Shown in pieces: positions 1,554-60,434 of a DNA stretch of 64,000 bases; the stretch's first letter is position 1; the number at the start of each line of letters is the position of its first letter. Location: IMG/VR virus record IMGVR_UViG_3300018906_000001; one strand, written 5' to 3'. Under the pieces are notes generated by a model. That model saw only the letters and a list, made by a program, of their open reading frames with translations, did no database searches and was not told the origin of the DNA. The position numbers were made by a program, and so were the translations under genes. Source of the DNA: a virus.

Positions 1554-1569
1554 TCACGGAGAACCGTGA
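1554..1569 (+). repeat. dispersed palindrome site 1, TCACGGAGAACCGTGA
   Basis: Exact; between convergent genes; arms extend ACTCA/TGAGT. Confidence 0.95.
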
Positions 1570-1578
1570 TGAGTTTTT

Positions 1579-3807
1579 TTAGTGGGCGACTGGCTCAGTG
1601 AACCTCATTCGAGGCAACCATTGGGCTTCCTCCGCAAAGAGGAAGGTTACGGTGCGACCACCCCACCAAGTCAACTTGAAAGAGATTTCCTTTAATCCCT
1701 CCAAGGAGAACTCTGAGACATATGTATCTAGGTCGAGAGCCGCCTCAGCGTTCTCTGCGTCCGAGACTATACTTGATAGCCTCTTGTAGAGAACTAGCAA
1801 CTCGGCGATACGCTGAACTGTTGCGACATCCTGAGGAAGCGATCGCAGTTTCTCAATTTCCGTATTGATATCTTCGGTGATTCCGCGAACCTTTTCGCGG
1901 AGATCAGCGACTTCCAGTGCGGCTTCTGCGACATCAGCCATACTTTTGCTGCCATACTTTTGCTCAAGTTTGGCGCGGTTTTCTTCCACCTCTTCAGGAG
2001 TGAGATCCTTCTGGAGGGGGGAAGCTTCGACGGCTTCTAGCACAAAACCGGAGCCGTCACTATTTTTCCCTGCCACGATAACTTCTCGCTTCGGTTCAGG
2101 ATTTTGCAGCACATCTGCTGCTGTTTCTATTACGCAAGCTGCCACCTTGACAGTGGCGGCAAATACATACATAGCACCCGTTACGGTGTTCATTAAAAAG
2201 CTGGTTGCGTTTCCAGCGGATGGGAAATGCAGGAACACTTTTGCCGCGCCGATAACTTTTAGCGCGTCTAAGAGGGCGCCCGCTGCGATTTTGACGCTGG
2301 CAGTGAATTTCTTCTTGCCTTCGGCAATTTCGGCAGGGATTTCCTGCTTCTTCGTTTTTGCGGCTTCCACAACAATTATCTCGTTGTCGAATACCAGGGT
2401 GACATTCTTGGCTCCTGCCTCAACGGCAGCTTTGATCGCCGCCAAGAGGTCTTTCTTCTTCACCTCTACGGTGGCTTCGTGGAAGCCACCTTTTCCTATC
2501 CCGTCCGTTAAGGGATACTTAGTTTGTGGTATGTCTACAAGGACATATCCAATATCGGTTTCAATCATTAATTGATCGAAGGTATAGTTGAGAGTCATCG
2601 TAATTTGTGATGACTTCATTGCGCTTATGGCTTCGATAGCCTCTAGCGGGAGAACAAAGCTTCTGTTCTCAGTGAGTTTCCCTTGAAGAGGAAACGTCCT
2701 GTGAGTCGTGACCGACTCAGACCAAGCTGAGACGGAAAGGAACTCGCCAGAAGCTTCAATTTGTACTGCCTTTCCCACAATTTCGGGATTTACTCCCTTT
2801 TTATTTGATCTTGCTACCTTTGCCGCAGCTACAAGGTCAGCCCAATGCTTTTCTAAACAAACGATAGATTGGCTATCAAGTTCCATCTCCTCTGGATCAA
2901 AATCGTGGAGTTGTTTTCCCCACGGACTGACCGAGACTTTCCTGTTATCTTTGCCAACGGTGACAATTAAGTCACCCTTGTCGATCGAGAGGCTTATACC
3001 CTCTGTGCTTTTGATCGATGAGATCGCCTTAAATAAGGCGGCATGGTCAACAATTGTTGACCATTTATCATCTGCCCCATTCAGGGCATAGGGCAATTTG
3101 ATGAGCATCCCATTCTTTCGATACGTCAGATGGAGCATCCCATGCTCGTACTCCAATGTGATGGGGGTTGTACCGTCTTGCTCTTTGTCAGGCACAACTG
3201 ACAAGAACTTTCTCAAGTCTTTAACGTTCATGTTCATATTGCTTGTGGTTGAAATATTGTCGTGTACATTTCCATTGTAACAAATTGTTAAGGGTTTTTG
3301 TATCAGCGCGATACATAATTCAGGAAATTCGGCATCGTAGCCGAGGTCTTCTTGAATGAACTTTTGCCAACTGCTGGGCTTCCAGTAATGCTGGTGCGTG
3401 TCCAGCTTTGTGTATTCGTCCTTGTCGTGACCTGGGCGAACTGCCAGGAAAACTGACTCGCGGGCTAATTCCCAACAGAACTGAACTACTTCTGGGATTT
3501 CCCAGGCTCGTTCAATTGTGTTGAGAACGTAGATGCAACTCACCACGTCGGCGGGTTGCAATAAAGATGGGTCATTCCGATAGTAAGGGTCGAAGCCCTC
3601 TGCTTTAATCCCCATCTCTTTAAGGGCGATCGCATCGGTGTTATACCCACATCCGAAATCCAACACGCTTGTGTCAGTCGTAATGATGCGATGCTTCAAT
3701 GCGACTCGCATCGGCGCTGACATCTTATGTCTTTTTATCGCCGATCTCCACCGGGAGGTTTCCCAAGTGTGATATTCTAACCAAGAAGACTGAATTTGAG
3801 ACTTCAT
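1579..3807 (-). CDS. fusion: N-terminal phosphorothioation-associated-type methyltransferase domain (~190 aa) + divergent DNA polymerase III beta-clamp-like protein with coiled-coil tail
   Basis: N-term SAIKRHKMSAPMRVAL...SVLDFGCG...GFDPYY...ADVVSCIYVLNTIE resembles the dnd-associated methyltransferase family; C-term has DnaN-like periodicity (FVLPLEAI...TKYP...VEVKKKDLLAAI...ALLDALK). Confidence 0.65.
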   Translation of the reverse strand: MKSQIQSSWLEYHTWETSRWRSAIKRHKMSAPMRVALKHRIITTDTSVLDFGCGYNTDAIALKEMGIKAEGFDPYYRNDPSLLQPADVVSCIYVLNTIERAWEIPEVVQFCWELARESVFLAVRPGHDKDEYTKLDTHQHYWKPSSWQKFIQEDLGYDAEFPELCIALIQKPLTICYNGNVHDNISTTSNMNMNVKDLRKFLSVVPDKEQDGTTPITLEYEHGMLHLTYRKNGMLIKLPYALNGADDKWSTIVDHAALFKAISSIKSTEGISLSIDKGDLIVTVGKDNRKVSVSPWGKQLHDFDPEEMELDSQSIVCLEKHWADLVAAAKVARSNKKGVNPEIVGKAVQIEASGEFLSVSAWSESVTTHRTFPLQGKLTENRSFVLPLEAIEAISAMKSSQITMTLNYTFDQLMIETDIGYVLVDIPQTKYPLTDGIGKGGFHEATVEVKKKDLLAAIKAAVEAGAKNVTLVFDNEIIVVEAAKTKKQEIPAEIAEGKKKFTASVKIAAGALLDALKVIGAAKVFLHFPSAGNATSFLMNTVTGAMYVFAATVKVAACVIETAADVLQNPEPKREVIVAGKNSDGSGFVLEAVEASPLQKDLTPEEVEENRAKLEQKYGSKSMADVAEAALEVADLREKVRGITEDINTEIEKLRSLPQDVATVQRIAELLVLYKRLSSIVSDAENAEAALDLDTYVSEFSLEGLKEISFKLTWWGGRTVTFLFAEEAQWLPRMRFTEPVAH
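3274..3282 (-). promoter_or_regulatory. internal extended -10 promoter (TGTTACAAT) with AAGCAAT leader and in-frame ATG at 3237
   Basis: Same motif as the genome-wide cassette promoter, lying inside ORF 1579..3807 just upstream of MNMNVKDL. Confidence 0.65.
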
Positions 3808-3883
3808 TTTTTTCTCTTTAAGGACAATAGGAAACCCGCAGGATTTGATCTGCGGGTTTGTTCATTTCTATTTGCTTAACGCA

Positions 3884-4018
3884 CTATATGACTCGGTTGC
3901 ACCCTTTCCGATCAGGATGGAGTTCGCACTCCGTGAGATCGGAAACAGAGAAGCCGCATAAGGGCATTCCCAACAAAAAAAATGCGCTAGCAATGAAAGC
4001 GGCTGATGCTGATAGCAT
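3884..4018 (-). CDS. small membrane protein, 44 aa (below ORF-track cutoff)
   Basis: MLSASAAFIASAFFLLGMPLCGFSVSDLTECELHPDRKGCNRVI; hydrophobic N-term; followed by terminator hairpin near 3833-3860. Confidence 0.4.
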   Translation of the reverse strand: MLSASAAFIASAFFLLGMPLCGFSVSDLTECELHPDRKGCNRVI

Positions 4019-58900: not shown

Positions 58901-59224
58901 AGCAGACCAGCAAAAGAAGTACTCACCGAAATAGAGGTAAAAGTCCACGAATTACGTGGATTGACCTCGTATTGCACAATTGACCTAAAAAAGATAGGAG
59001 AATTGATACAGCAGTTAGTCGCCACGTTCAATAGTGAAAGAGCAAATCTTGACATTGAATTAGGACAATCAACCAATGATGATATTCGTGAAGTCTACGA
59101 GGAAGTCAAATATGTCATCGATCTCTTAGATGGCAAGCACGAAGCAACGCTTAATCGTCTCGCAGACAACATAGAAGCAATTCTACCTAAAATGCTTGAT
59201 TTACTTCTCAAAAACCTTCAATAG
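58898..59224 (+). CDS. hypothetical protein
   Basis: Structured leader 58830-58897. Confidence 0.7.
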   Translation: MSRPAKEVLTEIEVKVHELRGLTSYCTIDLKKIGELIQQLVATFNSERANLDIELGQSTNDDIREVYEEVKYVIDLLDGKHEATLNRLADNIEAILPKMLDLLLKNLQ

Positions 59225-59352
59225 TCTCTAGCGTTGGAGATAGACCGCACATTCCAAAACCCGTACCTTTTCGGGGTACGGGTTTTTTGTACTCTGTAAC
59301 CCGCCACATTGCGGAAACATGAAACAATGGAAGGGAAACTATCAACTAAATC

Positions 59353-60396
59353 ATGTACAACTTATTAGAAACCTTAAAGTTCCGCGATTCGAGCGGATTC
59401 CGGTTCATAGTTGATCAAATCGCCGATCGCATTGCACAACTTCCCTGGGAAGTTACGCCAAAGGATGTTGGCGTAGAACAGGCGATCGCATATCCGAGTG
59501 TCCACTTAAACTTTGCGGGGCTTGTTCGACGGAGCATATTAGATATGCTTCCTTTGAATCTCGCCATGTACGAGGTAGCCGTCACCGACGAGGACAAATT
59601 CCTCTTAGATCAGTGCAACCCCGCCCAGTTATTTCTTCTTAAGGACTGGACTCCGGCAGCGCCGCCAGAGGTTTTTCGCTGGGTGTGTCACGTTAGCGAG
59701 AGCAAAGGGGATCTTTATTTGTCCGATCAGAAAATAGCAATATTCCCGGCTTACGGCAATTTTGAAATAACCCACGAAGAACTGTGGGGCTTACCATCGC
59801 CAGTCCATTTGATACGAAAGGCGATCGAAATGAAGTTAAGTTTAAAAGACGAAGCTTTCCCGGAGATGGGTTCCTCAAAAGTATTTGATGCCTCAATGAG
59901 TCTACAGAATGCTCTCAAGGAGATTCCTGAGCCAGAACCAGGATATGCTTCATTGTGGAACAGTGTATTTGGCTCAACTCCAATTCAAAAACTAAAATCT
60001 GGGATTATAGTTCCTGCCGAACCAACCCTGATCTTGAATGGAAACAGCGCTGGGGCGCGGGAGTATTCTAAGTGGCTAACAAATGCCATCCTTTCAGTCC
60101 TACTTCACACCTATCGCCCGTTACTAAAGGAATCGGAAGAAGAGGCGAAAATCAGGCAAGCTCTTGGAAGCTGTCGGGGATACGAGGACATAATGGTGGC
60201 GATCTCAGTCATCATCAGTCAAGGGATCAATCGGTTGATGAAGAACCTCGATATCGACTGCAAGTTTAGCTTCCAGGAGAAGTCTCAGAAAGATCCAAAT
60301 CTATTATTAAAAGAAGAAGTCGAAAAACGACAAACATTGGGTCAACTGGGTTACTTAGATGAGCATCTAGCTGATCCGAACAGAATAGAATCTTAA
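59353..60396 (+). CDS. hypothetical protein
   Basis: Long ORF. Confidence 0.7.
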   Translation: MYNLLETLKFRDSSGFRFIVDQIADRIAQLPWEVTPKDVGVEQAIAYPSVHLNFAGLVRRSILDMLPLNLAMYEVAVTDEDKFLLDQCNPAQLFLLKDWTPAAPPEVFRWVCHVSESKGDLYLSDQKIAIFPAYGNFEITHEELWGLPSPVHLIRKAIEMKLSLKDEAFPEMGSSKVFDASMSLQNALKEIPEPEPGYASLWNSVFGSTPIQKLKSGIIVPAEPTLILNGNSAGAREYSKWLTNAILSVLLHTYRPLLKESEEEAKIRQALGSCRGYEDIMVAISVIISQGINRLMKNLDIDCKFSFQEKSQKDPNLLLKEEVEKRQTLGQLGYLDEHLADPNRIES

Positions 60397-60418
60397 TAAG
60401 TAGCTTGTCGATACTTCA

Positions 60419-60434
60419 TCACGGTTCTCCGTGA
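60419..60434 (-). repeat. dispersed palindrome site 13
   Basis: Exact; upstream of portal. Confidence 0.95.

Follow-up and report, generated by a model that had tools for sequence, protein, structure and literature searches.

A lineage-specific palindrome dispersed at gene ends in a jumbo cyanophage

Dispersed, letter-perfect palindromes have been found in a few phage groups, and a mechanism has been assigned only to stoperators. In the Cluster A mycobacteriophages L5 and Bxb1, stoperators are asymmetric 13-mers that are bound by a monomeric repressor and oriented with transcription (PMC6550527, PMC9283540). Mycobacteriophages of Cluster O carry more than 30 copies of a 17-bp dyad repeat, TGTTCGG-N3-CCGAACA, in which the 7-bp arms are invariant and the 3-bp spacer, rich in A/T, has a predominant sequence present in either orientation; the function of this repeat is unknown (PMC4351075). 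A decade after their description the Cluster O repeats, the most similar to the element studied here, are still unexplained. The promoter-early stem-loop elements (PeSLs) of T4-type phages are conserved over ~100 bp and are thought to act through homologous recombination (PMC2839356, PMC4122927). Here we analyze a 16-bp palindrome, TCACGGAGAACCGTGA, that recurs throughout a 64,000-nucleotide stretch of viral DNA (IMG/VR record IMGVR_UViG_3300018906_000001; hereafter, the window). The palindrome is real and strongly non-random, it is specific to one phage lineage and it is found at gene ends.

A search of the whole window for TCACGGAGAACCGTGA, allowing up to 2 mismatches, returned 13 sites, against 0.03 expected from dinucleotide shuffles, and reproduced exactly the positions reported in the initial annotation. 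Ten sites are exact, those at 9937 and 48322 carry 1 mismatch and the one at 9294 carries 2; the 14-nt core, CACGG-N4-CCGTG, is intact in all 13. The extended consensus put forward earlier, C-R-TCACGG-AGAA-CCGTGA-Y-G (C-R to the left and Y-G to the right of the 16-mer), holds as well. Cores with a single mismatch are absent from the window, where ~1 would be expected by chance. Exact-protein look-ups gave access to ~31 kb of the same phage beyond the window, bringing the total to ~95 kb and adding 4 sites, for 17 altogether. Counts of one-mismatch cores (0 in these ~95 kb and 2 in 52 kb of a relative, phage B) show no excess over chance. The sites of the window are listed below; "bare" denotes a site lacking an extended stem, and orthologs are those in phage B.

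1554..1569, + strand: exact site; caps an 11-bp hairpin (1549-1574) that precedes T7; convergent genes on both sides; positioned after a second, bidirectional terminator.
9294..9309, + strand: variant site with a TGAA spacer and an outer U.G pair; caps a 13-bp hairpin (9287-9316) that has a T-run and pairs on the + (sense) strand only; promoter TGTTACAAT follows at 9332.
9937..9952, + strand: variant site with an AAAA spacer; tops a 13-bp hairpin between A4 and T6; 28 nt past a stop codon.
13922..13937, - strand: exact site; caps a 12-bp hairpin (13916-13943); the + strand carries TTTT, and a G.U pair forms in the sense strand only; 24 nt upstream of the DndD-like gene; ortholog at L295 12990.
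19880..19895, - strand: exact site; tops a 15-bp hairpin (19871-19904); 7 nt past a stop codon; T-rich tail, then a promoter at 19920; ortholog at L295 17320.
22560..22575, + strand: exact bare site; 7 nt past a stop codon; a separate canonical terminator adjoins it, and a promoter at 22623 comes next.
27263..27278, + strand: exact site; 10-bp stem without T-run; 11 nt past a stop codon.
31214..31229, - strand: exact site in coding sequence; provides a TGA stop and the overlapping ATG of the next gene.
38294..38309, - strand: exact and bare; the integrase gene lies 93 nt upstream; a separate bidirectional terminator follows at once (in the - sense).
44587..44602, - strand: exact bare site; divergent region between a 165-aa gene (-) and the AIPR gene (+); adjoins a weak terminator-like hairpin.
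48322..48337, - strand: bare site with a mismatch at the outermost base, core intact; positioned at a synteny breakpoint, with an 80-aa gene 6 nt downstream; ortholog at L293 7258.
56961..56976, - strand: exact site; caps a G/C-rich hairpin of 13 bp (56955-56982) that lacks a clear T-run; lies 11 nt past a stop codon.
60419..60434, - strand: exact bare site; 22 nt past a stop codon; a separate terminator, which is conserved, carries T8 and is upstream of the portal gene, follows ~25 nt on; ortholog at L161 9926 (spacer AACT).

Twelve of the 13 sites are intergenic (binomial P = 4e-11), and the remaining one, at 31214, lies across a stop/start overlap. The initial description missed the placement of most copies just after stop codons: in this phage, 12 of 17 sites are no more than 30 nt from one. 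The sites are 4.9 kb apart on average, with a coefficient of variation of 0.47, which is evener than for random gene junctions (P = 0.009). Their spacers are AGAA in 14 cases, TGAA in 2 and AAAA in 1. Relative to flanking transcription, 10 of the 17 spacers are AGAA-type, 4 are TTCT-type and 3 are ambiguous. This is a non-significant lean (P = 0.18), in agreement with the earlier statement that core orientation does not track transcription. The initial annotation also judged a classical repressor operator to fit poorly, and we likewise rejected a promoter-operator reading: a TGTTAYAAT promoter follows within 150 nt at only 3 of the 13 sites, and at no fixed distance. A Shine-Dalgarno function of the GGAG in the loop would fit 31214 only, the spacing to the start codon being wrong elsewhere. 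Beyond the window, ~11.6 kb past its end in the same phage, the motif is part-duplicated in tandem (TCACAGTTCTCCG then TCACGGTTCTCCGTGA; L294 9908-9935), an arrangement that suggests replication slippage at a site.

The window derives from a HIP1-rich jumbo cyanophage found in soil-crust metagenomes, with a genome of ~243 kb (related assemblies reach up to 243 kb); it matches one JGI metagenome contig at 100% identity. The HIP1 sequence (GCGATCGC) occurs 71 times in the window versus 1 expected, and a TnpB protein of the phage is 89% identical to a Microcoleus TnpB. From these two features, the host is probably a filamentous cyanobacterium of the genus Microcoleus. The initial annotation had named equal abundance in the host chromosome, as a generic repetitive extragenic palindrome (REP)-like repeat, as an outcome that would refute its interpretation. 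In 301 cyanobacterial genomes the core occurs 0-12 times per genome, equal to a reversed-pattern control and hence at background level, and we rejected the host-repeat reading. Genomes with 7-12 copies mostly hold a different palindrome, the perfect 14-bp CACGGCATGCCGTG, which is spread over many contigs in genomes G040, G257 and G271 and is probably part of a repeated element. Among the matches listed for genome and metagenome contigs, the exact 16-mer gave only single, evidently chance hits; in viral contigs there were 33 single matches, of which just one (L159) came from a sister sample. Megablast against plasmid and phage collections produced no match.

Copies of the element are found in close relatives of the phage. 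Phage B, whose portal protein is 78% identical and whose nucleotide identity is 70-74% in the two genes compared, has 21 sites in 52 kb with the same 5+5 core. Here the spacers are AACT/AGTT (13 sites), AAGT/ACTT (5 sites) and three others, giving the consensus CACGGA-NN-TCCGTG. The nearly invariant spacer pointed out initially is thus a property of the window phage, whereas phage B keeps the arms and uses other spacers. A third phage (79% portal identity; 18.5 kb) carries 2 copies with a 5-nt spacer, situated at or near orthologous spots, as well as 2 copies of CACAG/CTGTG type. Relatives whose portal identity is 50-58% yielded no copies; among them is a complete 189-kb record, which has no dominant palindrome of its own except HIP1-derived ones.

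Five gene junctions have a site in both the window phage and phage B: three lie upstream of a gene (the DndD-like gene, an 80-aa gene and the portal gene), one follows a 292-aa gene, and one is located 7.6 kb past the portal gene. At all five the core is identical while the spacer is the one typical of each phage, AGAA/TTCT in the window phage versus AACT/AGTT/AAGT in phage B. Most other sites are at non-orthologous junctions, indicating high site turnover. Orthology between the site at 44587 and L293 1700 was considered and dropped, as the flanking 165-aa gene has no homologue in phage B. A site within the dndB gene of phage B falls in a segment that aligns to the window phage without any indel; the two differ by substitutions only, not all of them synonymous. 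Should the site be the derived state, point mutation would have created it, with selection acting on the site as such. In phage B, several sites coincide exactly with synteny breakpoints. By a hand count, sites are present at ~29% of breakpoints versus ~22% of conserved junctions, which is no clear enrichment.

To compare structure, 38 sites from the window phage and phage B were aligned and oriented by flanking transcription. The 5 core pairs are invariant in all 38. Given that the two phages are 70-74% identical in the two genes compared, such constancy suggests that sequence, and not structure, is being conserved. The 7 outer pairs are paired in 56% of cells, and doubly changed paired cells number 56 as compared with 36.5 +/- 6.2 after shuffling (none of 500 shuffles reaches this value). 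The complementarity of the outer flanks, already remarked upon in the initial annotation, accordingly exceeds that of shuffled flanks, but it is confined to a subset of sites. The sites divide into two structural classes. In the extended class, at least 3-4 additional base pairs are followed by a T-run; it comprises 5 of the 13 window sites (1554, 9294, 9937, 13922 and 19880) and 7-8 of the 21 in phage B. Six extended copies form the full stem only on the T-run strand, by means of G.U pairs, and none does so only on the opposite strand. Because of the T-run and of this strand-specific pairing, about a third of the copies look like intrinsic terminators selected at the RNA level. In a separate consensus scan, 4 window sites ranked near the top of the terminator-like hairpins present in the first 20 kb. 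The other copies, more than half, have a stem of 5-6 bp with neither extension nor T-run. Some of these bare sites (22560, 38294, 60419 and 44587) stand beside a separate terminator, which at 44587 is only a weak terminator-like hairpin; further bare copies are located between closely spaced co-directional genes or within genes. Their flanks show the half-site consensus (C-R / Y-G) on each side independently and are often non-complementary.

We view the 16-mer as the window-phage form of a gene-end element confined to this clade, in which the inverted repeat CACGG-N4-CCGTG stays constant. Our preferred interpretation, held tentatively and at a little under even confidence, is that this element is a putative docking site for a sequence-specific trans factor encoded by the lineage, which would mark gene ends in the manner of a stoperator. 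Several observations argue for it. Selection on structure alone would be expected to leave covariation and wobble in the core, as it has in a second hairpin family of the window, CCAYCACAG...CTGTGRTGG; this is not observed in the core. The fixed core, the copies that are either perfect or absent, and the parallel spacer shift at orthologous sites point instead to a co-evolving reader of duplex DNA. Since each phage keeps its own spacer in both orientations relative to transcription, this reader would recognize the duplex rather than an RNA loop. With 10 bp between half-site centers and an A/T content of 76% in the spacers, the geometry suits a dimer. Gene conversion is an improbable source of the uniformity, as the conserved unit measures 14-20 bp and has unrelated flanks. 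The independent half-site consensus of the two flanks, the indel-free alignment of the dndB site, phage specificity, gene-end placement and the published precedents of the stoperators and the Cluster O repeats can be added to these arguments.

As to the nature of the factor, a dimeric DNA-binding protein is the likeliest candidate. It would contact two half-sites one helical turn apart and read the A/T-rich spacer indirectly. Once bound, it would mark or reinforce the boundaries of transcription units as a roadblock or insulator, and would do so throughout the genome, where numerous single genes or small sets of genes have a strong extended -10 promoter to themselves, a logic akin to that of mycobacteriophage stoperators. 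Once transcribed, the palindrome is also a hairpin in itself, which would make it an easy seed for extension into a terminator.

Some of the data speak against a DNA-bound factor. The DNA-binding candidates seen are limited to an ArsR-type winged helix-turn-helix protein (451-765), an HTH_3 protein (6791-7600) and DndB (12455-13591). The 5-nt spacers of the third phage, its compensatory CACAG/CTGTG pair change and one phage B terminator copy with a G.U pair in the core all fit a hairpin better than a rigid duplex operator. Moreover, as the terminator-type copies appear to be selected as RNA, the whole family could act at the RNA level.

Recognition of an RNA hairpin is the main rival to the docking-site interpretation, and we consider it rather unlikely. 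The transcribed hairpin, whose stem is the same from either strand, would be read by a stem-specific RNA-binding protein or an endoribonuclease and would determine the 3' ends or the stability of mRNAs, or their processing between cistrons; terminator copies would be those with a longer stem and a U-run. Sites placed just past stop codons, and mostly upstream of separate terminators, would be retained in 3' untranslated regions, and the bare hairpin has a dG of -6 to -8 kcal/mol. The G.U-dependent pairing of the six extended copies, the loop of either 4 or 5 nt, the G:C to A:T double change in the third phage and the G.U pair in phage B count on the same side. This explanation is at odds with the asymmetric spacer, which, conserved both ways, would yield two different RNA loops. 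Likewise, covariation is absent from the core of the 38 sites, the flanks are conserved as sequence and not as pairs, and at least 2 sites occupy divergent promoter regions. A search of Rfam returned no family match.

It is also conceivable, at a probability we regard as low, that there is no trans factor and that the sites form one successful family of terminator or stabilizer hairpins, spread and homogenized through recombination among PeSL-like terminator-promoter cassettes. The genome is built from such units. The extended -10 promoter TGTTAYAAT is present in 29 copies in the window, usually ~20 nt past the T-run of a terminator, and many intergenic regions share the stereotyped, PeSL-like layout of hairpin, T-run, ~20 nt and TGTTAYAAT. 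Other hairpin families occupy the terminator slot of the cassette. One is the CCAYCACAG-loop-CTGTGRTGG family, followed by a T-run, which resembles the motif and shows wobble and compensatory changes; downstream of the DndD-like gene the window phage has a hairpin of this type where phage B has a CACGG site. Members of this family in the window are the following.

4270-4301: CCAYCACAG...CTGTGRTGG hairpin.
4580-4611: CCAYCACAG...CTGTGRTGG hairpin.
7623-7648: CCAYCACAG...CTGTGRTGG hairpin.
15914-15945: CCAYCACAG...CTGTGRTGG hairpin.
16555-16586: CCAYCACAG...CTGTGRTGG hairpin.
20759-20790: CCAYCACAG...CTGTGRTGG hairpin.

The sites situated exactly at synteny breakpoints and the PeSL precedent (PMC2839356, PMC4122927) would also be in keeping with cassette recombination. 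Against it, more than half of the copies have a perfect core yet neither extended stem nor T-run, and a conserved unit of 14-20 bp amid unrelated flanks is too short for homologous gene conversion. Sites within genes, one of which differs between the phages by point substitutions only, are also difficult to accommodate, as is the parallel spacer change at orthologous sites; the association with breakpoints is itself unclear.

A further proposal, which seems to us improbable, is that the palindromes are parS/matS/KorB-OB-like loading sites for DndB, a ParB-like protein, acting with the SMC-like DndD and, in phage B, with ParA. The replicon that they organize or segregate would be either the jumbo genome or a plasmid prophage. 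The even spacing of the sites is consistent with this. DndB proteins are known to bind palindromes, of the form TACG-N10-CGTA (PMC4507180). DndB orthologues (E<=1e-40) were recovered from this clade only, and tblastn with the DndB of the window phage found nothing in the motif-free 189-kb relative. In both phages a site separates the dndB block from the DndD-like gene; in phage B, one site is inside dndB and a ParA gene is divergent from it. Nothing, however, ties DndB to the CACGG motif specifically, and the window phage has no ParA at the position next to dndB. A different palindrome cluster, of CTGTACAG type, lies directly upstream of dndB in a more usual centromere layout, and the stop-codon placement and the fusion to terminators would be left unexplained. 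These last two features favor a role in transcription or at gene boundaries over a purely structural one. The suggestion in the initial annotation of a structural site of the parS/matS kind is supported insofar as the sites are genome-wide, lineage-specific and constrained in sequence; a purely parS/matS-like function seems improbable. Its remark that the motif does not match the canonical parS was borne out, no match to TGTTNCACGTGAAACA being found.

The region upstream of dndB deserves description in its own right. The CTGTACAG-type palindromes are accompanied there by iterated TTAGGCTAAG-like repeats (window 12160-12376; L295 7734-7929). In phage B a gene for a ParA-like ATPase (L295 9102-9938, - strand) is divergent from dndB, and this ParA cassette is missing from that place in the window phage. 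The cluster looks like a partition-type module with DndB as its putative ParB-like partner, and is a more conventional centromere candidate than the CACGG sites. No solved structural relative of DndB could be found by sequence. Together with a PAPS-reductase-like (DndC-like) gene situated left of the window, DndB and the DndD-like protein may constitute a phage DNA modification set of the phosphorothioation type. The phosphorothioation consensus GAAC/GTTC occurs in both phages within the main spacer context, though not in the same register, and several sites lack it.

A more ambitious possibility, to which we assign only a small probability, combines both roles: a single DNA-binding factor (possibly DndB together with the SMC-like DndD), acting at some 45-100 evenly spaced gene-end palindromes, would partition transcription units and at the same time organize the chromosome, the sites being co-opted as terminator seeds in a host phylum without Rho. 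If true, such a combined insulator and chromosome organizer would be without a described counterpart in any phage.

A mobile or recombinational origin, as REP/PATE-like hairpins moved by an HUH transposase or as crossover sites of a phage recombinase, is very improbable: the phage does have several TnpB, IscB-like and IS607-type genes and an integrase, the phage B motif can be read as 6-bp arms around an asymmetric central dinucleotide and one local tandem part-duplication exists, but there is no Y1 transposase gene among the gene calls of ~95 kb of the phage, decayed copies are absent, the coding-region site differs between the phages without any indel, and 5 pairs of assemblies (most from different samples, and read as consensus only, so that rare events could escape) run colinear through the sites, at which neither inversions nor deletions were seen. 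The directional recombination site contemplated in the initial annotation finds no support, given the same colinearity and indel-free alignment and the fact that the sites are not the ends of the insertion sequence (IS)-like elements. An IS-end reading was likewise rejected, as the palindrome is not within the two IscB-like element copies of the phage. These copies, 88% identical to each other, belong to a 1.36-kb element (window 7868-9223; L288 5291-6652) consisting of ~200-240 nt of upstream sequence and a 386-aa RRXRR (IscB/IsrB-like) gene, with homology stopping at the stop codon. The upstream part could encode a guide RNA.

The remaining gene content is that of a jumbo phage, which is possibly temperate. 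The window encodes a portal protein, a baseplate wedge protein, a tail fibre, an integrase, methyltransferases, DndB and the DndD-like ATPase. Just beyond its left side, a 7312-aa protein with a tape-measure domain is encoded in the same region as the DndC-like gene (L288 1-1919 and 6923-7891). An endonuclease VII/HNH-like gene with an IS607-type serine recombinase is an insertion relative to phage B, and a 514-aa TnpB gene is a further one (window 62121-63595, L286 17828-19372).

The palindrome adds to the picture of elements of this sort in two respects. One is comparative evidence for a co-evolving trans reader, in the form of a core fixed across diverged phages and a parallel change of spacer; the other is that such sites are seen merging with intrinsic terminators. 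Cyanobacteria are not known to encode Rho. In hosts of this kind, gene-end marking encoded by the phage would bear on how transcription is organized in large cyanophages.

Comparison with known systems places the element nearest to the mycobacteriophage repeats. Like REP sequences, it is a short gene-end palindrome able to double as a terminator or mRNA stabilizer. REP/RAYT elements are chromosomal and imperfect, with decayed copies and a RAYT gene, none of which was seen here; nor did we find, in the gene calls of ~95 kb of the phage, in its IscB-like elements or in the 301 cyanobacterial genomes, the Y1 gene, IS ends or host-wide presence that would denote REP/RAYT or IS200-IS605 end hairpins. 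DNA uptake sequences (DUS) and uptake signal sequences (USS) are DNA-level signals that often form inverted pairs in terminators. With ParB-parS and KorB-OB the element shares the format of a 13-16-bp multi-copy palindrome in a phage lineage encoding DndB, of the ParB-like family, and, in phage B, ParA. It differs from parS in that its sequence is unrelated to the canonical site and its copies are dispersed instead of clustered near par-like genes. The PeSLs of T4-type phages (PMC2839356, PMC4122927) find a parallel in the cassettes of terminator hairpin and sigma-70-type promoter that surround the sites, some of which are at cassette junctions. Unlike in PeSLs, conservation extends over 14-20 bp only, a promoter is within 150 nt at just 3 of 13 sites and many copies have no terminator features.

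The closest mechanistic model is provided by the Cluster A stoperators. As in that case, many near-identical sites are dispersed between genes, mostly away from promoters; the consensus differs between related phages, which in stoperators occurs in step with the binding protein; and the effect proposed is on transcript elongation or boundaries. The single orientation of stoperators is not shared by the sites described here, which are palindromic and orientation-free. The closest published parallel is the Cluster O repeat, as a member of the same descriptive class and not of a homologous family. The arms are 7+3+7 in Cluster O as against 5-6+4+5-6 here, host and phage type differ, and about a third of Cluster O copies lie in genes compared with 1 of 17 in the window phage and 2 of 21 in phage B. 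Terminator fusion has not been described for Cluster O, and the comparison supplies no mechanism. In other respects the two coincide: both are present in tens of copies, many of them intergenic and some in genes, both have invariant arms around an A/T-rich spacer whose predominant sequence occurs in both orientations without tracking transcription, and both are specific to their own cluster of phages.

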